NCBI GenBank assembly: GCA_965247555.1
Contig: CBDFHR010000009.1
Location: 1,604,060 to 1,668,059 of the forward strand
Length of the DNA stretch: 64,000 bases
From: Dehalococcoidia bacterium
Lineage (GTDB): Bacteria; Chloroflexota; Dehalococcoidia; Lucifugimonadales; VXLM01
Direction of reading: 5' to 3'
Under the pieces are notes generated by a model. That model had not been told where the DNA came from, did no database searches, and saw only the letters and a list, made by a program, of their open reading frames with translations. The position numbers and the translations under genes were made by a program. Numbering within the stretch: position 1 is the stretch's first letter; each line of letters starts with the position of its first letter. Shown one piece after another: positions 7,808 to 56,470 of the stretch.

Positions 7808-8894
7808 CTACACCGGCAGCAGCTTGATGCACACGGGAGCGGGGACGTCGACCTCGTGGCCCGTCGGCTCCGGCATCCCGGTCTCCCGGTTGATGCGGTA
7901 GGTGAGGATGTTGCCGGTGTCCTGATTGGATACCAGCATGTATGTCCCCGAAGGGTCGATGGCGAAGTTGCGAGGAGTCTCGCCCCCGCTCGATACGTGG
8001 CCGACGAATGAAAGCCCGCCGGTGTCCTGGTCGATACTAAAGACGGCGATGCTGTCATGTCCACGATTGGAGCCGTACACGAACTCGCCGGACGGGGACA
8101 CGTGGATGTCGGCGCAGTGGTTGACGCCCTTGAAGTCGTCCGGCAGGGTCGTCACCGTCTCGATCTCGTTGAGCATCCCACGCAGGCCGTCGTAGTGCAT
8201 CGCGGTTATCGAGGAACCCATCTCGTTGAGGAGATAGGCGTACTTGCCGTTCGGATGAAAGGCGAAGTGGCGCGGCCCTCCCCCCGGCGGAGTGCGAGAC
8301 ATACGGCGATTCGGCCGGCGTGAGACTCCCGTCGCCGTGATTGAGCCTGTACGCCAACACCTTGTCGATCCCGAGGTCGGCGGCGAAGGCGAACATGTTG
8401 GTTGGATCGATATTGATCGAGTGCCCGTGAGGCCCCTCCTGACGCTCGGGATCGATGCTCGACCCCTCGTGCTGAGAGAAACCCGCAGCCTCTCCGAGAC
8501 TCCCGTCCTCCTGGACAGGGTATGACGCGACGCTCCCACTCCCGTAGTTGGCCAGCAAGACGTATCGGCTCGTCTGGTCAACTTCAACGTGACAAGGCCC
8601 CGTTCCTTCAGATGACCGTTCGTTCAGGAACGTCAATTCCCCCGTTCGCGAGTCTATCGAGTAGGCCCTCACCACTCCGGTCTTCATGGCCTCGAAGTCC
8701 GCGCACACCGCGTACAGGCTCTTGCCGGACGGAGCGATATCCAAGAACGACGGGTCATTGATTGCTCCGGTCGTGCCGACATGCTCTAGCGCTCCCGTCG
8801 CCATATCAAAGCGGTAGCAGTAGATGCCCTCTGACCCCAGGGACGTGTATGTGCCGATATATACGAGATACTCATTTGCCATCTTGCAGATCAC
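7808..8894 (-). CDS. lactonase, 7-bladed beta-propeller family (6-phosphogluconolactonase-like); frameshifted in this assembly
   Basis: ORFs 8055-8894 and 7808-8587 are the N- and C-terminal halves of one protein (...PYVSHSAGG | GPRHFAFHPNGKYAY...). The frame changes inside a C6 run at 8280-8285, and removing one base restores the frame. Confidence 0.8.
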
Positions 8895-9244
8895 CTCGAA
8901 GTTTCTCTCACCACAATGTGAGGAAATCGGGACGGTTTGTCAAATCGTGGGGATGGTGGTGGGAACTTTCTCTATAAGGATTGGCTTGGAGCTCTAGCGG
9001 AAACCGGATGGTTCGGGTCCAGTTGGGTGGGTCTGCCAAGACTGAATTGCGAACTTTTCGCTGGGAGGTCTTGATATAGGAAGTTGATCAGACGTTCCCG
9101 GCTAGCCCATACGAGCTTCCCGCTCTGAATGCGAGGGCGCAGGGGCAATCGCCGCCACGTGATGCGTTTGGCTCTCCCGGCGCGCGCTTTACAGGAAGCG
9201 GTCATCCGTCCTACCATGCAGACGCTACTTTGAGAGGGTAAGAC

Positions 9245-11223
9245 GTGACTACCGTCAGCCGCTACGCCGTCGAAGAGTTCAAGCACGGCGTCCGCCGAAC
9301 GCAGGACCTCAACGGTCCGGGAATGGAGAAGGAGGCGCGTCATGGTGAAGCCGAAGCTGGCCAGACGCGGTCCTGTGCGGAGTGCAGAACGGACATCTCA
9401 GACCGCCTTCCATATGCCCGCTACTGCATTGAGCATGGCACAGCACTGGCAAAGCAACGCCGATACGACGCCAAGGCCAAGGCGGCTCGCGCACCAAGGG
9501 CGTGCGCGGAGTGCGGGGCGGATATCTCAGTACGCCGCGGCAATGCACGCTACTGCGTCGAGCACAGCACTGTGCTGGCGGCGCAACGCCGCTACGACGC
9601 AAAGGCCAAGGAGGCCCGCGCGGCTGAGGAACGCCCGCCACGCGTGTGTAAGGAGTGTGGTGGGGAGATTAAGGGGCGGCATTTCAACGCCTGGTACTGC
9701 GCCGAGCACACCACGGCTGCCGCCGCCGCGGCGCGTCATGGCGGAGCCGAAGCCAGCCCGGAGCGGTCATGCGCGGAGTGCGGGGCGGACATCTCATACC
9801 GCCGACTCTCTGCCCGCTACTGTGTCGAGCACGGCGGGCCGCCGGCCAAAGCGCGCCGGTGGCGTGCCAAGGCGAAGACACCCCGCTCGCCAAGGGTGTG
9901 CGCGGAGTGCGCGACAAGTATCGAGGAGCGGCATTCCGCTGCTCGATACTGCATCGAGCACGGCACAACGACGGCGACACGTCGCCGCTACAGCGAGCAG
10001 GCCAGGGCGGGTCGCGCACTAAGGGCATGCGCAGAGTGTGGGAAGGACATCTCAGAGCGCCCCTGCAATTTCCACTACTGCGCCGAGCACGGCGGGCAGG
10101 CGAGCAACATGCGCCGCTATCTTGCCAAGCGCAAGGCGGGCACCCTACGTCCTACGCGGTCATGCGAGGAGTGTGGGATTGATATCTCAAGTAGGCATTT
10201 CAATGCCCGCTACTGCGACGAGCATGGTACGCCCCTGACGTGGAGCCGCCGCAACCGTAAGGCGGCCAAGGCGGACCCCACAGAGCGTCCGTGCAAAGAG
10301 TCAAGTGTGGGGCGGATATCTCAAATCGCCCCAGCAACGCCAACTATTGCGCTGAGCATGGCGTGCCCCTGACGTGGGGCCGCCGCAACCACGAGCGGGC
10401 TAAGGCTAGCCGTGCAGGACGGTCATGCGTGGAGTGCGGGTTGGACATCTCGGATCGCCGACGAAACGCTCGCTACTGCACCGAGCATGGTGGGGATGCG
10501 AATACGGAGCGCCGCTACCAGGTTGCCATCAAGGCGGCCCGCACAGGGAGGACGTGCGCGGAGTGCGGAGTAGATATCTCAGAGCAGGGAGGCAGTGCCT
10601 TGTATTGCGTTGAGCATGGCTCGTCCTTGGCGACGAGCCACCGCTACCTCGCTGCGGCAAAGGCGGGCCGCCCTGCTAAGGCATGCGCGGAGTGCGGAGC
10701 GGAAATCACAGAACGCCGCGGCAATGCCCGCTACTGCGCCGAGCACGGCGGGCAGACGGGCACAATCGCCCGCTACCGGGTTGTGGCACAAGCGGCCAGC
10801 TCACTGCGGTCATGCGCGGAGTGCGGAGCAAATATCGGGGAGCGCCCTCCGTCTGCCCACTACTGCGTCGAGCATGGCGGGCCAGCAGGCACGCGCCGAC
10901 GCTACCTCGCGACAGTGCGCGCCCACGAAACCGCGCAGACATTGAGGCAATCGGATGGAGGGCGCGCCGCCTTGCGGTCTCGCGCGCATTCTCGGCGCGC
11001 TGCAGGGAACACTGAGAATATCGCGAAGTTGACTGAGGGTGGGCTGAGACGCATTAGGGGCGGTGAGACGGTTCTCTGTGGGATATGCGAGCAGCCGATA
11101 CTCGATGTCGACGAATTCGAAATCGACCACATCCTCCCGATTACCAAGGGCGGAACGCACGAGTTAGAGAACCTGCAACCTGCGCATGCGATCTGTAACC
11201 GCCGCAAGGGGAATCGGATGTAG
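9245..11223 (+). CDS. 12 tandem CxxC...CxEH zinc-ribbon-like repeats with a C-terminal HNH endonuclease domain, split by a 5-nt insertion near 10301-10305
   Basis: ORFs 9245-10372 and 10291-11223 are in different frames but form one continuous repeat series. Each unit reads about R.CAECG.DIS.R...ARYC.EHG......RRY.AKAKA. The C-terminus is CGICEQPI...EIDHILPITKGGTHELENLQPAHAICNRRKGNR (HNH). The start is uncertain (GTG 9245 or ATG 9323). Confidence 0.8.
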
Positions 11224-11255
11224 TCGCCGCGTAACCAAGCTTCCTGCGAGCCACA

Positions 11256-11333
11256 TGGTGGACCCGACGAGAATCGAACCCGTGACCCTAAACTTCGTGA
11301 GAGAAGTACTCTGTCCACTGAGCTACCGGGGCC
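11256..11333 (-). tRNA. tRNA gene with encoded CCA; anticodon not confidently assignable by eye (CUC/Glu most likely if one base is missing)
   Basis: The reverse complement is GGCCCCGGTAGCTCAGTGGACAGAGTACTTCTCTCACGAAGTTTAGGGTCACGGGTTCGATTCTCGTCGGGTCCACCA. It has a canonical D arm and T arm (ACGGG-TTCGATT-CTCGT). The anticodon stem ACTTC/GAAGT encloses only 6 nt (TCTCAC). Confidence 0.7.
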
Positions 11334-11403
11334 GACCGGATTTTGGCACAGCATAATCCAGCAAGGCCCTTTGGAAGCTATAAACAGTTGCACCGTAGTT
11401 TGG

Positions 11404-12551: not shown

Positions 12552-14980
12552 ATGCTGATACCCATATCCTGGCTTAAACGCTACGTGCCCGTCGATTTGC
12601 CGGCGAAGGAGCTGGCGCATCGGCTGACCATGGCCGGGCTGGAGATCGACGAGGTACGGGAGGTCGGCGCCGACTGGGGACGCGACAAGGTCGTCGTGGG
12701 CCATGTGATGGCGGTAGACCGGCACCCGAACGCCGACCGACTAACGATGCCTACTCTCGATCTCGGCGGCGGCGAGACGGCGCAGGTGGTATGTGGCGGA
12801 CCGAATCTTGAGGTGGGACAGAAGATCGCCTTCGCCCACGCCGGGGCGGTGCTGTACAGCACCAAGTCGGGGAAGACGCAGCCGTTGAAGCGGTCGAAGA
12901 TCCGAGGCGTCGAGTCGGCAGGCATGGTCTGCTCGGAGGTCGAGTTGGGCCTCGGCGAGGACCACGAGGGCATCATGGTGCTCCCGGAGGACGCGCCCGT
13001 CGGAACGCCGCTCGTGGACTACCTAGGCGATGCCGTACTGGACGCCGACGTGACCCCGAACCGCCCCGACTGTCTCTCGGTTCTGGGAGTTGCTCACGAG
13101 GTGGCCGCCCTTACCGGGGCGACGGTCGTCGAACCCGACCCAATATACCCGGAGTTGGGCGACCCCATCGAGCGGGACGTAACGGTCGAGATCGCCGACC
13201 CTGATCTCTGCTCGCGCTACGCGGCCAGCCTGATTCGTGGCGTCACGGTCGGACCGTCGCCGGACTGGCTGAAGGATGCCCTCGCCGCCGTGGGGATGCG
13301 CCCGATCAACAACATCGTCGACGTGACGAACTACGTCATGCTGGAATACGGCCAGCCCCTTCACGCCTTCGACTTCGATACGATCGGGACTCGACGGTCA
13401 TCGTGAGGGCCGCACGGCCGGGAGAGAAGTTTACGACTCTCGACGAAGAGGAGCGCTTACTCGACCCGCCAATGCTGGCCATCGCCGACTCTCAAGACGC
13501 GATAGCGCTCGCGGGCGTGATGGGCGGACAGAACACCGAGGTCGGCGACTCGACGACCAACGTCTTGATCGAATCGGCGAACTTCGACGCAACCAACACG
13601 CGGAATACGTCCGTCGGCTTAGGTATGCGGACCGAGGCGTCGTACCGGTTCGAGCGCGGCATCCGGCAGGACCTCGTGCCCCGAGCGCTGCGAAGGGCGA
13701 CGGCCATGATGCTCGAATTGGCGGGTGGAGTCGCTGCGAAGGGGATCATCGACGTATTCCCCGTCGTCAAGACTCCGCCGACACTGACGATAGGACCGGA
13801 GCAGTTCCGGCGCGTGCTCGGCACGGACATATCAACCGATACGATAGACGGAGTGTTGACCTCGTTGGGCTTCGAGACGACGCGGGACGGGGACACGCTC
13901 GACGTGCGGACGCCATACTGGCGGGCGGACATCAATATCGCAGAGGACTTGGTTGAAGAGGTCGCGCGGATCGTCGGCTATGACGACGTGCCCGCGACAC
14001 TGATGTCGAGCGAGATTCCCCATCACCAGCCGCGTGCAGAGCGCGAGGTGAGAGAGCGGGTCCGTGACGCATTGGTCGCATCCGGTATGCAGGAGACAAT
14101 CTCCTACTCGGCGACGAGCATTGAATTGCTGGAGAAGGTGGAGGTACGAACGGACGGGCCGGACGCGCCGCTAAGTCTATCGAACCCCATGAGCGCGGAG
14201 TTGACGCACATGCGGACATCGCTTCGCGCCAGCGTGCTCCAGACGCTCGCATTCAATCGACGGATGTCACGCGGTGAGGGCCTTCGGCTCTTCGAGATTG
14301 GATCGGTCTATCTGCCAAGGGAGGAGTCGAAGGAGCGCGACCTGCCGGACGAGAAGGAAATGCTGGTCGGCGTGTTCTCCGGCCCGCGATCCGGAGCATC
14401 GTGGCTCGTGCCTGAGGGCGACATGGACTTCTTCGACGCGAAGGGCGTCATGGAGGCGGTCTTCTCGCAGGTCGGCCTCTCGGAGGAGTACAAGGCGGAC
14501 AGCGATCCGATTCTGCTTCCCGGCAAGACGGCGAGGATCTTCTGCGGGGGCAAGGCGGTCGGCACGATTGGAGAGATACATCCCAAGATCCTCGCGCGCT
14601 TCGGTCTCGACGACGATGGGGTCAGTCTGTTCGAGCTCGACCTGGAGTCGGTATATGTCGCAGCCGGTCGGGTTTCCGTGCATTACGCGCCGATCAGCCG
14701 GTACCCTGAGGCTGAGCAGGACATTGCCATTCTCGTCGACGCAGATGTGCCATCCTCTCGGATTCAGACGATCATCAACCGCCACCGATTGGTGAAGAAG
14801 AGCGCGCCGTTCGACCTATATACCGGCGAGGGAGTACCATCAGGCAAACGGTCGATTGCTTTCAAGGTAACGTTCCAGTCCGACAGGTCGACGCTAACCG
14901 GAGACTTGCTAGATAAGGCGCGGGGAGACATCATTCGACAACTCGAACGCGAGCTGGGCGCGACTCTGCGGGGCGAGTAA
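12552..14980 (+). CDS. pheT: phenylalanine--tRNA ligase beta subunit; frameshifted in this assembly
   Basis: ORFs 12552-13406 and 13403-14980 are two parts of one PheT, with tRNA-binding, B3/4, B5 and FDX-ACB regions. They join as ...HAFDFDTIG | DSTVIVRAARPGEKFTTLD. The frame is restored by adding one G to the G3 run at 13386-13388. Confidence 0.9.
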
Positions 14981-36811: not shown

Positions 36812-37044
36812 GATTTCTCCTCGTGTACACGGGACGGAGCCAGAAGCTCGTCCCGCGCTGCTTGAAACGACCGATGGAGTGTAGCAACCGCCATGGTGCC
36901 CGTCAACCGCGCGGGAATTCACCGCTGGGGCGTCAGATCTCGCCATATGAGGAGGTGCCCATCATTCACGAGGCGTTTGTCGGGGTCACTGCCGCATCGG
37001 TCGGCAGCATGGCGGTACACTTCGGCGAGTGTTCTTAGGCCGCG

Positions 37045-38270
37045 TTGGAGGTCGGATTGGCATCTACCCAAACAAACGAGACCATTCGCTACGAGTCGGA
37101 CGAGCGGTGTCCCCTCTTCGTGTCGGTCGGAGTCGCCTTTCAAGGCATCATGCTGGTGCTGGCGCCGACGGTACTGTTCGTGGCCATCACCGTCCGCGCG
37201 GCAGGGCTGGACGACAGCTACCTCACGTGGTACGTCTTCGCGGCCCTGATCATCAATGGGGTTATCACAGCGTTACAGGCCAGCCGACTGGGATGGTTCG
37301 GGGCGGGGCATGTGGTGATTACGGGCCCAACCGTCCAGTTCGTGGTGGTTTCCGCCACGGCGTTGTCGCAGGGTGGGCCGGGAACCCTGGCGAGCCTCAT
37401 CCTCGTCTCATCAATCTTTCAGTTCGCGCTGGCGGTATGGCTGCCGTTCCTGCGACGGATCATCACCCCCGTCGTGTCCGGAACCGTGCTCATGCTGATC
37501 CCTGCCACCGTGCTACCGGTCGCGTTCGACAGGCTGAAGGAAGTACCTGAGACGACGGCGCCGGTCCGCAGGACTGATCGTCGCTATAGCGACGCTGGTT
37601 GTCGCCGTTGCTCTGGCGATGATCACTTCAGGAGGGTGGCGGCTGTGGTCTCCGCTCATCAGCATCGGGGCGGGCAGCGTGGTGGCAGTGCTGTTCGGGA
37701 TGTACGACGTTCAGCTCGTGTTCGATGCAGCTTGGGTCGGCATACCTGAGACCCGATTCCCAGGATTCGATTTGACGCCCGGCCCGGAGTTCTGGGCACT
37801 CCTGCCGACGTTCGCGATTTTGACCCTTGTACTCGGCATCAAGGCCATCAGCTATGGCGTTATCATCCAACAGAGCTCTCAGCGGGAGCCACGGACAATT
37901 GATTTCCGGCGGGTCCAGGGGACAGTCAGCGCGAACGGTGTGGGCATGGTACTGGCCGAAATCGTGGGGACGCCGCCCACCTTGGTCTATTCATCGTTCA
38001 GCTCTCGCTCATCAATTTTACAGGGGTTGCGGCGCGCAGCGTCGGATACGCTATGGGGGTAATCCTCCTCGTGCTCGCGCTCTTCCCTAAAGTGAGGGGA
38101 GTTCTGCTGATAATTCCAAGTCCTGTGATGGGAAGTTTATTGCTGATCGAGGTCGCCATGCTGTTTTGGAGGGGATACAGACCCTCGCGCGGACCGGCCT
38201 CGTTTCGAATCGATGCGTGCGTCGCCGAATCATCGCGACTACACGCGCAGTCGCTTCCTCAAAATCTAAA
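37045..38270 (+). pseudogene. nucleobase:cation symporter-2 (xanthine/uracil permease) family gene, at least 2 frameshifts and an abnormal 3' end
   Basis: The hydrophobic NCS2-like sequence continues through three track ORFs (37045-37749, 37619-38062, 38053-38454). The breaks are near 37560-37566 and 37996-38001. The last 180 bp overlap the convergent hydrolase gene and lose permease character. Confidence 0.6.
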
Positions 38271-54164: not shown

Positions 54165-54833
54165 CTAGGACGACGACTTGGTGCCGCGGAAGGGATGGAC
54201 CCAATCGGCGAGGGAGCGAGGGTTCCGGGACTGGACCCAGAGCCTGCCCCTGCCGGAGAACTCCATGATGATCTGGTCGGAGAAGAGGAACGAGCGGATT
54301 TTCGCGGCGCGAGTCAGCCGGTATTCGAGCGTCGAGTCCCAAGCGACGGCGTGGCCGTTGTCGACGATGTACGCGCCGTCCACTTCGATCTCTTGGATGT
54401 CGCCATAGGCGCTGAAGAACAGCGTCCCGGCGCCCGACACGCGGAGGATGAACATTCCCTCGTTAAAGAGACCTCGCAAGCCCTGGAAATCGGAGTTCGT
54501 CGACACACCGGGCGACGAGGCAAGATAAGCGCCCTTCTCCAGCAGCAGCTCCTCGCCGTCCATCTCGTACGCCATGATGTCGCCGGGCTGTCCCTGCGTG
54601 AGTCCGATGGTGCCCGGAGCGCCCTCCGCCTCGTAGGTGTTCTGGAAGAAGCTCTCGCCACCGAGAACCCTCCGGCTCAGACCCGACATGATGCCGCCTC
54701 TCACGGACGTCTCCGCCCGCATGTTGTCGGTCATCCAGGCCATCGCGCCCGACTCGGTGACCAACTGCTCACCGGGATTGAGGGTGACCTCCGCGAGGCT
54801 GTAGCTCGGCCGCGAGTGTATGAAATAGTCCAT
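54165..54833 (-). CDS. AIM24/TIGR00266 (DUF124) family protein, paralogue 1
   Basis: Contains L.PGE.....GAM.WM and SGEGL-type motifs shared with the two upstream paralogues. Confidence 0.75.
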   Translation of the reverse strand: MDYFIHSRPSYSLAEVTLNPGEQLVTESGAMAWMTDNMRAETSVRGGIMSGLSRRVLGGESFFQNTYEAEGAPGTIGLTQGQPGDIMAYEMDGEELLLEKGAYLASSPGVSTNSDFQGLRGLFNEGMFILRVSGAGTLFFSAYGDIQEIEVDGAYIVDNGHAVAWDSTLEYRLTRAAKIRSFLFSDQIIMEFSGRGRLWVQSRNPRSLADWVHPFRGTKSSS

Positions 54834-54835
54834 TA

Positions 54836-55522
54836 CTAGCTCTTCTCCGGGAGCAGTGGGCCGAGCGTCCTGCCGAACTCATCGGGATTGTGGCTCTGAA
54901 CGTAGACTCGACCGTACCCGCTGAAATGAAGTACGAGTCCCTCGCTGGTCAGGAATGAGGATACCCAGCTTCCGCCCGCCTTGCCGACGGAATATTCGAG
55001 CGAGTCCTCGAACGCCACCACGTGTCCAGTGTCGATGGTGAGCCCGCCCTTCACTTCCAACTCCGTGATCGTTCCGAAGGCGTTCACCAGTAGCGGCCCG
55101 ACGCCCTCGACGGTGAGGAACGACAGCGACTCGCCCGACAGCATACCCCGCAGTCCCTGGAACTGCGTGTCGATGTTCAGCTCGGGGGCGGAGCCGAGGT
55201 AGCTCCCGCCCGCGCAGACCCAGCGTGCGCTGCCGTCGCACTCTATGTGGGCCACCTGCCCTTGCAATATGGGAGCCAGGCCGATCTCGGCGTCCCGGTC
55301 GTCGACCACGCTGTAACGCGAGAAGAAGAAATTCTCCCCCGCGATCATCCTCTTGATGCCTGACATGATGCCGCCGCTGCTGCGACTGCGCGTCGTCACG
55401 TCGATATCGACGTTGTCGGACGCGCGGAACATCGACCCCGCCTCGGATACGAACTCCTCCGACGGGCGGAGGTGAACGAGGGCTGAGCCGAACGCGCCGT
55501 TGTCAGCGATCTCTATGTGCAT
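54836..55522 (-). CDS. AIM24/TIGR00266 (DUF124) family protein, paralogue 2
   Basis: ATG 55522 (MHIEIADNGAFGSALVHLRPSEEFVSEAGSMF...) is preferred. The longer track ORF would overlap paralogue 3. Confidence 0.72.
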   Translation of the reverse strand: MHIEIADNGAFGSALVHLRPSEEFVSEAGSMFRASDNVDIDVTTRSRSSGGIMSGIKRMIAGENFFFSRYSVVDDRDAEIGLAPILQGQVAHIECDGSARWVCAGGSYLGSAPELNIDTQFQGLRGMLSGESLSFLTVEGVGPLLVNAFGTITELEVKGGLTIDTGHVVAFEDSLEYSVGKAGGSWVSSFLTSEGLVLHFSGYGRVYVQSHNPDEFGRTLGPLLPEKS

Positions 55523-55557
55523 CTTAGAGCGATATCCCCTATTGCCAAACCGATGTC

Positions 55558-56214
55558 CTATCTCGTGAAGGGCGTCAGCCACGAGGCCAGCCCCGGCATG
55601 GTACGTGTTTGCAAATAAATCGTGCCCGTGCCAGAGAACTTCATTACGAGGCCCTCCCCGGACAGCAGCGTGCTCTTGATCCCGCCCATGCCCTGTATGG
55701 AGTAGCTCAGGGACGGCTCCCAAGCGACCACGTGGCTCGTATCGACGATGAACGAGCCGTCGATCTTCTTATCGATGATCGAGCCGTAGGCGTTGAAAAA
55801 CAGCTCTCCTCTGCCGCTGCACTCCATGAGGAACAGCCCCTCGCCGGAGAAGAGCGCGCGCGCCCCGCCGAACTTGGTGCTCAGCTCCACGCCGGGAGTA
55901 CAGGCCATGAACGAACCACCCGTGAGCATGAGCGAGTCGCCGTTCAGCGTCCTCTGCACGACGCTTCCGGGCTGCGCGGGAGAGAAGGCGATCCCGCCGC
56001 CACTGTCAGTGGAGTACTCGCCTACGAAGAGCGACTCTCCACCCGTAAACTTGCGGATGAGGGCGCTTAAGAAGCCGCCGAGCAGACGCGCCTTCGACTG
56101 AATGTCGGAGTCCATCCACGCCATCGAGCCGCCCTCGGCTATGAACTGCTCGCCCGGACCCAACTGCACTCGCAGTTGCCCGTAGTCGGGATTGCCGACA
56201 ATGTCGATCTGCAT
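55558..56214 (-). CDS. AIM24/TIGR00266 (DUF124) family protein, paralogue 3
   Basis: ATG 56214 (MQIDIVGNPDYGQLRVQLGPGEQFIAEGGSMAWMD...). Confidence 0.75.
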   Translation of the reverse strand: MQIDIVGNPDYGQLRVQLGPGEQFIAEGGSMAWMDSDIQSKARLLGGFLSALIRKFTGGESLFVGEYSTDSGGGIAFSPAQPGSVVQRTLNGDSLMLTGGSFMACTPGVELSTKFGGARALFSGEGLFLMECSGRGELFFNAYGSIIDKKIDGSFIVDTSHVVAWEPSLSYSIQGMGGIKSTLLSGEGLVMKFSGTGTIYLQTRTMPGLASWLTPFTR

Positions 56215-56470
56215 AGGGAAATCGTATCGTCGATTCCATGCTTGTGTCAATCGGATTTCCGACCTGTAAGCCTGTATTCAATTCTGTATTCAATATGGTA
56301 CGCGTTCCTCTGGCAGTCACCATAGGACCATCCCGCCGCACCGGCGAAAGCCAATATCCGGAGTGGTCTGTCATCATGAGTGACACCTTTCCCGAAACCT
56401 CCCACAAGATTGGGCCAAAATCCAGTCTGGTACCCTTCGTTCTCCTTCTGGTAATCTGTCATGCGGAGAG

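Follow-up and report, generated by a model that had tools for sequence, protein, structure and literature searches.

In a 64,000-nucleotide (nt) stretch of Dehalococcoidia bacterium DNA (assembly GCA_965247555.1, contig CBDFHR010000009.1, positions 1,604,060 to 1,668,059; the window, whose own coordinates are used throughout unless another locus is named), we found a gene at 9245 to 11223 that encodes 12 tandem zinc-ribbon-like units followed by a C-terminal HNH nuclease domain. With moderate confidence, we interpret this gene as a free-standing, homing-type mobile single-gene cassette encoding a multi-zinc-ribbon HNH endonuclease. The coding sequence is divided between two plus-strand open reading frames (ORFs) in different frames, 9245-10372 (375 amino acids [aa]) and 10291-11223 (310 aa). 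Joining the frames gave a 657-aa protein with a 39-aa N terminus, 12 tandem units of 41 to 48 aa, a helical linker of approximately 50 aa, and the HNH domain; its net charge is +38, its isoelectric point is 9.4, and its arginine content is 13.7%. An earlier note on this DNA, made from the sequence alone, had proposed 12 units and a nuclease spanning a frame change, and both the joined translation and a unit alignment confirmed this arrangement. The CxxC positions given there fall within 1 to 3 nt of the first cysteine codons that we computed (9374, 9503, 9647, 9770, 9899, 10028, 10163, 10292, 10426, 10555, 10684, and 10813).

Analysis of the C-terminal domain against Pfam gave a match to PF01844 at residues 610 to 656 of the repaired protein (48.4 bits against a cutoff of 21.4; E=1e-12). 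The catalytic His (in a DH motif), Asn, and His, together with a structural CxxC/HxxC zinc site, were read directly from the translation (CGIC...EIDHILP...ELENLQPAHAICN), and the HNH core recognized earlier is thus well founded. In the AF2 model, the domain adopts the beta-beta-alpha-metal fold (strands 276-280 and 295-299 and helix 300-306), for which the top Foldseek matches were the Gme HNH nickase 4h9d (probability 0.98 to 1.0) and then Cas9 HNH domains. The domain and its stop codon occupy 11077-11223 (+), and the linker that joins it to the array (10930-11076, +) is common to phage HNH endonucleases (phrog_338).

Relatives of this protein are scarce. A word-indexed search of 5.8 billion clusters returned three homologues (P0001 to P0003). 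When a profile of the 12 units was scored against all 1.84 billion representative proteins at a threshold of E<=1e-3, 114 proteins matched, four of them strongly (P0001 to P0004); P0008, a frameshifted fragment with a weaker score, belongs to the same subfamily on reading of its sequence. The 12- to 13-unit subfamily with Cys-Cys-Cys-His (CCCH) ligands comprises five loci and three protein-only records, has 5 representatives among the 1.84 billion proteins, and is extremely rare. One species-representative genome carries the gene (locus L002; OZ244716.1, labelled "MAG Dehalococcoidia bacterium," MAG denoting a metagenome-assembled genome), and look-ups added three further loci (L039, L040, and L041). 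The JGI metagenomes contained HNH-only relatives and no further array of the 12- to 13-unit type; close relatives were not found in IMG/VR, where the matches were few-unit or HNH-only. Searches of phage and plasmid records gave no DNA match to phage records and protein matches confined to the HNH core. Exact look-ups of both window ORFs, P0002, and P0003 found none of them on record, and a literature search for tandem or multiple zinc-ribbon arrays found nothing.

Each unit, of approximately 43 aa, has the ligand pattern C-x2-C-x13-C-x2-H followed by a basic helix. The second knuckle Cys, an Ile, a Tyr-Cys pair, a Glu-His pair, and one Arg are invariant in the 12-unit alignment, and Arg(-1), Glu3, Arg11, and Ala15 are nearly so. 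The first Cys is kept in 11/11 complete units, the unit 8 row being truncated by the frameshift, and several of the positions conserved throughout the units are Arg. These data support the earlier description of four-ligand zinc modules with basic linkers fused to an HNH core, and the ligand pattern suggests that the units bind zinc. The fourth ligand is replaced by Cys in one L002 unit and, on direct reading, by Asp in one P0001 unit, variation of the kind expected of a metal ligand; some homologous units have a C-x4-C first knuckle. In AF2 models of five units with HNH (predicted local distance difference test score [pLDDT], 71) and of a di-unit (pLDDT, 82), every unit has a short beta-bridged knuckle, a loop containing Y-C-x-E-H-G, and a helix of 14 to 18 residues; the di-unit prediction, a check proposed with the earlier note, thus returned a knuckle plus a helix per unit. 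The unit may be a zinc ribbon or a treble-clef-like fold; it is not a C2H2 finger. A C2H2 identity was rejected on the C-x2-C-x13-C-x2-H ligands and the lack of a Pfam zf-C2H2 match. Profile searches of the unit with Pfam and NCBIfam gave sub-threshold knuckle matches only (YhfH, DZR, DUF333, TraR, and YacG), so the unit did not turn out to be a well-described domain.

The units are individually distinct, and their order is conserved. Pairwise amino acid identity among the window units is 33 to 67%, which does not bear out their description as near identical. Each window unit is 63 to 79% identical to its positional counterpart in L002 versus 33 to 60% to any other unit, and the matrix of window units against L002 units shows a clear diagonal. 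P0001, which is 41% identical overall, has signature units in the same order when read directly (NAWYC...RHGG; RRWR; SIEERH; NF.YC...RRYLAK; HFNAR); in the automated matrix of window units against P0001 units, the Cx4C knuckles of that protein introduced noise. Changes in copy number are limited to the similar N-terminal units, unit 2 being duplicated in L002 and hybrid in L041. Because unit order and identity are kept between orthologues, the array is old, with each unit retaining its own identity. At the DNA level, 11 copies were detectable with a spacing of approximately 129 nt and 60 to 79% identity; Tandem Repeats Finder did not report the array region (9245-11223) as a repeat because the copies are too divergent. 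Collapse of repeats during assembly was considered as the source of the repeat number and rejected, on this divergence of the units and on their colinearity with counterparts in L002 and L041. A search for homologues with their repeat numbers gave 12 to 13 units in the orthologues and 2 to about 5 in phage relatives.

Variable positions within the unit are found at knuckle position 2 and in the inter-knuckle loop (6, 10, 12-14, 16, and 19) and in the following helix (24-28 and 32-35). The alignment therefore does not bear out a description of the units as variable between the ligands, and the distribution is unlike a code of the kind used by transcription activator-like effectors or zinc-finger nucleases. 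As a separate observation, knuckle position 2, which separates the first Cys from the conserved Glu (for example, 9377-9379), is Ala in 8 of the 12 window units and mostly Ala (CAEC) in the L041 and L039 units but Glu in 7 orthologous L002 units, which amounts to a parallel GCG-to-GAG change across many units. Gene conversion, selection, or a systematic base-calling error are possible explanations.

Comparison of the window with the four other loci showed that the gene is contained in a cassette of approximately 2.1 kb, consisting of a promoter and one gene, that has the same ends in five loci with flanks of four kinds. On the right, homology to L002, L039, L040, and L041 always stops at ...CTTCCTGCGAGCCAC (window 11254), the end of a conserved 3' tail (11224-11254, +). 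On the left it begins at GCGCGCTTTACAGGAAGCGGTCAT (window 9182), with homology to L040 and L041 extending 40 to 140 nt further upstream. The left end (9182-9244, +) is conserved in all loci and contains a sigma-70-like candidate promoter (TTTACA at 9188-9193, an 18-nt spacer, and TACCAT at 9212-9217) and a ribosome-binding site (GAGAGGG at 9232-9238). In the window, the cassette lies between a lactonase gene and a tRNA-like sequence followed by pheST; in L040, between a gene of no assigned function and tRNA-Ile, then 16S rRNA; in L002 and L039, which are mutually syntenic, between a formate-dehydrogenase-like gene and a membrane protein gene; and in L041, between a glyoxalase gene and, after 267 nt, three tRNAs and lpdA. 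The loci examined contained neither an integrase nor a transposase, and they showed no att repeat and no partner gene conserved among them. A unit of promoter plus ORF that changes location and has no immunity gene displays the pattern of a free-standing homing-type endonuclease gene, and the homing nuclease that the earlier note had offered as an alternative fits this cassette-like distribution.

In two of the four contexts, the window and L040, 1 to 2 nt separate the cassette from the 3' end of a tRNA or tRNA-like gene in convergent orientation. In L040 (11308-13852, -), the neighbor is a good tRNA-Ile(GAT) of 72.5 bits that follows a complete 16S rRNA gene, so the cassette there sits at the tail of an rRNA-tRNA operon. 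No tRNA was found within 10 kb of the cassette in L002 and L039. An integrative element at a tRNA was considered and rejected, since the tRNA 3' end is not duplicated and neither att-like direct repeats nor an integrase turned up; of the proposed tRNA integration hotspot, only the abutment on a tRNA 3' end, in those two contexts, was retained.

The closest described proteins are phage nucleases. The second window ORF matched phrog_1271, "HNH endonuclease," across both ribbons and HNH domain (E=5.3e-22; residues 4-309, profile 77-318 of 361), as did the L002 protein (2.6e-34) and Mycobacterium phage Gaia gp136 (1.8e-69). Gaia gp136 has about five YCSxxC-type ribbons and then HNH, and Microbacterium phage vB_MoxS-R1 gp70, of the related phrog_8660, has two ribbons plus HNH and adjoins the terminase gene. 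Both phage families share tandem ribbons, a helical linker, and HNH with the window protein, and the ribbon motif R-x-C-x2-C-G-x2-[IF]-x2-R-x3-A-x-[YF]-C is common to it and phrog_1271. However, the phage members of phrog_1271 are actinophage proteins with 2 to about 5 ribbons and a C-x2-C second knuckle ("YCSxxC"), whereas the window subfamily has 12 to 13 ribbons with C-x-E-H, a longer basic helix in each, and a Dehalococcoidia-like host. The remaining profile matches, approximately 110, form a looser class with 1 to 7 tandem R-x-C-x2-C-G-x-D-I-S-x-R-x3-A-x-[YR]-C-x2-C ribbons. Pfam partners among the 114 matches were HNH in 21, endonuclease VII (EndoVII) in 5, NinG in 3, and GIY-YIG in 1, which makes the ribbon a recurrent partner of small nucleases.

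Ten phage or prophage zinc-ribbon HNH enzymes have been characterized (Xu and Gupta, 2013; PMC3592412). They carry one or two extra zinc sites, or four in one fusion, and are site- and strand-specific nickases with a specificity of 3 to 7 bp (PMC3592412). The window protein resembles the Group 1 nickases of that study (for example, N.phiGamma and N.BceSVIII) in its N-terminal zinc-ribbon region, its C-terminal HNH with its own CxxC-type zinc site, and its use of both CxxC and CxxH knuckles. In contrast to the 1 to 2 extra zinc sites and 95 to about 300 aa of Group 1, the window subfamily has 12 to 13 such sites in about 657 to 700 aa, and while Group 1 genes adjoin cos or terminase genes, the window protein is chromosomal with no phage genes nearby. 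The earlier remark that no described family with this architecture could be named is too strong in view of the phrog_1271 match and the characterized nickases, phage proteins with 2 to 5 such ribbons plus HNH having already been annotated. Multi-zinc-ribbon HNH proteins are a kind already known, though barely studied, and the 12- to 13-unit CCCH form is not; its array of 12 is the longest found in phage-type zinc-ribbon HNH endonucleases.

The window protein lies outside the family of C2H2 zinc fingers and natural zinc-finger nucleases. It shares with engineered zinc-finger nucleases and poly-C2H2 proteins (Zif268::N.phiGamma, CTCF, and PRDM9) the placing of tandem small zinc modules before a nuclease and, with C2H2 proteins, a superficial C-x-E-C-G knuckle match. 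In C2H2 fingers (C-x2-C-x12-H-x3-H), however, the helix carries the second ligand pair, whereas in the window unit the helix follows it. A viral sequence, L053 (IMGVR_UViG_3300035698_011533), contains a 374-aa ORF with eight tandem four-Cys ribbons and, directly after them, a C-terminal HNH. Its ribbons differ (C-x2-C...C-x2-C-Y-x3-RPK, about 30 aa, without a long helix) and its array is not sequence related, which shows that HNH nucleases acquired long arrays of ribbons on more than one occasion. We also noted six eukaryote-like, low-complexity, Ser-rich proteins (P0009, P0023, P0024, P0063, P0073, and P0101) in which an N-terminal Cys-rich domain, itself conserved, precedes tandem C-x2-C-G-x-D-I-S-D-R-P-x-N-H-x2-C-L-x-C-[YF] ribbons, an occurrence of the same type of ribbon outside nucleases.

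An enzyme with one HNH active site cleaves one strand. In the mechanism that we propose, the C-terminal domain is the metal-dependent cutter, and by analogy with characterized zinc-ribbon HNH enzymes, each monomer most likely nicks a single DNA strand. The array of 12 CCCH modules, in each of which an Arg-rich helix of 14 to 18 residues follows a putative zinc knuckle, may represent an expansion of the one- to five-ribbon DNA-binding region of phage HNH endonucleases. It would most likely spread the protein over a long segment of double-stranded DNA, so that the nuclease core, whose own specificity is short, would act at a long, rare target. A long, rare target would allow a stand-alone nuclease without an immunity partner to be tolerated, and the gene may act as a homing-type selfish element in Dehalococcoidia-like genomes. 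Of the modular nucleic-acid-recognition array proposed earlier, the architecture stands, and binding and modular recognition are functions it may serve. Like the free-standing homing endonuclease genes (T4 mobE/I-TevIII-type HNH and seg/mob), the cassette is a lone nuclease gene with its own promoter and unrelated host neighbors, no immunity gene, a patchy distribution, and frequent degeneration. Unlike them, it has no cognate empty site or co-conversion tract that we could identify, and its contexts vary between genomes instead of showing presence or absence at one locus.

A ribbon module can apparently be iterated a dozen times with the identity of the units kept across orthologues, as one would expect of an array that reads a long, asymmetric target. 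Were such a target confirmed, this array would surpass in length all other natural, protein-only targeting arrays of bacterial nucleases and would be a candidate scaffold for rare-cutting nickases. In addition, the loci document a tiny, integrase-less, single-gene cassette that moves between sites in Dehalococcoidia-like genomes, whose mobile elements are poorly known.

Several observations count against a functional homing endonuclease. The flanks of the four contexts contain no common target motif that we could see, and no empty-site allele was recovered, so homing is something that we infer. Variability within the units is diffuse, not gathered at a few code-like positions. No solved structure resembling the unit was found: a PDB sequence search returned only the C-x-E-C-G knuckles of C2H2 fingers, and a Foldseek search with the di-unit model returned nothing below E=1, with probabilities of at most 0.2. 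The window, L002, and L041 copies each carry exactly one frame-disrupting indel in a 2-kb gene, the low-coverage L039 copy carries many, and indels across copies could reflect widespread decay instead of function. Finally, dN/dS (the ratio of nonsynonymous to synonymous substitution rates) of about 0.45 to 0.7 indicates moderate constraint only.

The frame change reported earlier is present in the window sequence, and the comparison with L002, L039, and L041 refined it to a 5-nt insertion. In the alignment with L002, the extra nucleotides (tcaag; 10301-10305, +) separate the Glu codon of the unit 8 knuckle from the codon for its second Cys; they are missing from L039 and L041 as well, where the knuckle reads C-V-E-C. 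A programmed frameshift was rejected, as there is no slippery heptamer, a -1 slip would yield C-x4-C, and orthologues without the 5 nt read CxxC. The insertion would represent either a recent inactivation or an assembly error. In the window-L002 comparison, dN/dS is 0.46 upstream of the break and 0.43 downstream (0.48 overall and 0.71 in the linker plus HNH), and the similar values on both sides suggest that the break, if real, is recent.

It is a serious possibility, if short of a probable one, that the window copy and perhaps most copies are decaying pseudogenes of a once-mobile nuclease gene with no present function. Homing endonuclease genes typically degenerate after fixation. Only the window has the 5-nt insertion, a single disruption is present in each of L002 and L041 and many in L039 and L040, the L041 cassette seems to have a higher density of disruptions than its flanks, and dN/dS, both overall and in the linker plus HNH, points the same way. 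Against this, the assembly itself makes indel errors nearby. The neighboring lactonase gene (7808-8894, -; PF10282, a seven-bladed propeller), whose earlier identification was confirmed, is itself frameshifted: it is split at a G7 run (8276-8283), with Pfam profile positions 2-194 and 185-343 in separate ORFs and frames. The essential gene pheT (12552-14980, +) is likewise split (12552-13406 and 13403-14980) where one G has been lost from a G run near 13386, dividing the B3_4 domain (2-62 and 68-174). The tRNA-like sequence next to the cassette is malformed as well. The errors in the lactonase gene and pheT are homopolymer errors, whereas the cassette insertion is a 5-nt non-homopolymer one. 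The other disruptions are 1-nt changes in short runs: L041 has lost 1 nt in a CC run, and L002 has gained a T in a TT run after about codon 33. The extra T puts the conserved N-terminal ~33 codons (MTTVNRYAVEEF...; L002 9116-9215, window 9245-9345) out of frame with the remainder, so that the seemingly intact 698-aa ORF of L002 begins at an upstream TTG in the wrong frame. L039 and L040 are low-coverage (5x and 9x) long-read contigs with many split genes. P0001, from a Logan assembly, has an intact 651-aa ORF, and in the window every ligand and catalytic residue is kept on either side of the break.

We consider it unlikely that the array serves as a polycationic anchor or spacer that holds DNA with high affinity but non-specifically and without a sequence code, with specificity residing in the HNH domain as in the phage gamma HNH. 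Deletion of the ribbon domain weakens but does not abolish the specificity of N.phiGamma (PMC3592412), and the conserved Arg residues and the diffuse variability described above would suit such an anchor. However, unit-specific residues and unit order are kept between orthologues, which would be unnecessary for a generic polycation, and a non-specific nuclease without an immunity partner would be toxic. Were the array a generic polycation, or the gene decaying, the protein would be a curiosity of domain expansion. At the other extreme, and still less likely in our judgment, each of the 12 to 13 units would read a few base pairs, so that the array specifies a 40- to 60-bp site for a modular rare-cutting nickase whose cassette would home to sites beside tRNA genes. 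If true, this would be a protein-only natural counterpart of zinc-finger nucleases, and if rules linking unit to sequence exist, the scaffold could be reprogrammable.

An anti-phage defense effector, in which the array senses foreign DNA or a phage protein and licenses the HNH nuclease, seems improbable. A stand-alone nuclease with a patchy distribution and differing genomic contexts would be compatible with such a role, the HNH core gave weak PADLOC matches to PtuB (E=8e-4), and restriction-modification-like genes lie about 6 kb away in L039. However, those PADLOC matches cover the HNH core only, there is no PtuA-type partner or conserved neighbor, the flanks in the window, L002, and L041 are housekeeping genes, and the closest relatives are encoded by phages and not by host defense genes. 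Least probable of all is that the array binds structured RNA (tRNA or rRNA) and not DNA, in a nuclease that processes or targets RNA. Specific binding of RNA is within the reach of zinc ribbons (Nob1, cited in PMC3592412), the array is Arg-rich, and the cassette abuts the tRNA-like 3' end in the window and tRNA-Ile after 16S rRNA in L040 and lies 267 nt from a tRNA cluster in L041, but the HNH module and the preceding helix are of the phage DNA endonuclease type, L002 and L039 lack a nearby tRNA, and gene adjacency is no evidence for a substrate.

Returning to the proposed homing-type cassette, its parts can be placed as follows, all on the plus strand. The GTG start and N-terminal ~39 aa (MTTVSRYAVEEFKH..RRTQDLNGPG; 9245-9361) are conserved in P0004 and L041 and lie in another frame in L002. 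Units 1 (9362-9490), 5 (9887-10015), 6 (10016-10150), 7 (10151-10285), 9 (10414-10542), 10 (10543-10671), 11 (10672-10800), and 12 (10801-10929) were delimited by the unit alignment. Unit 2 (9491-9634) has an exact duplicate in L002 and is hybrid or duplicated in L041. Unit 3 (9635-9757) is the most divergent (NAWYC...AAAAAARHGG) and is recognizable in L002, P0001, and P0002; unit 4 (9758-9886) is the one whose fourth ligand is Cys in the L002 orthologue; and the CxxC knuckle of unit 8 (10286-10413) is interrupted by the frame change. Upstream of the cassette, a leader of approximately 150 nt (9038-9181) has a conserved counterpart in L040 and, for part of its length, in L041, whereas L002 and L039 have other sequence in its place; it contains a repeated CTGAAT(T)GCGA motif and could be a regulatory region or a portion of a longer form of the cassette.

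The neighbor downstream, outside the cassette, is a defective tRNA-like sequence (11256-11333, -) whose 3' end abuts the cassette. The earlier note had taken it for a tRNA gene, yet it falls below the Rfam tRNA threshold: it has no match at gathering score (RF00005), and its best match is tmRNA-like at 16.5 bits. The anticodon loop is 6 nt long, and ARAGORN consequently called the sequence "tRNA-???" with an anticodon of 2 bases. Over 11256-11369 (-), the acceptor stem is also followed by one additional base, the variable loop measures 8 nt, and the tmRNA-like match uses an upstream GGGCCUU able to pair with the 3' end, including a G3-U70 pair. A genuine tRNA carrying several errors, one that has decayed, or something of another kind could account for this neighbor. 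Elsewhere in the window, a xanthine/uracil permease fragment (37039-38062, +; profile 161-295 of 389) overlaps an ORF in another frame, probably through another frameshift, and three tandem AIM24-family (PF01987) paralogues lie at 54165-56277 (-).

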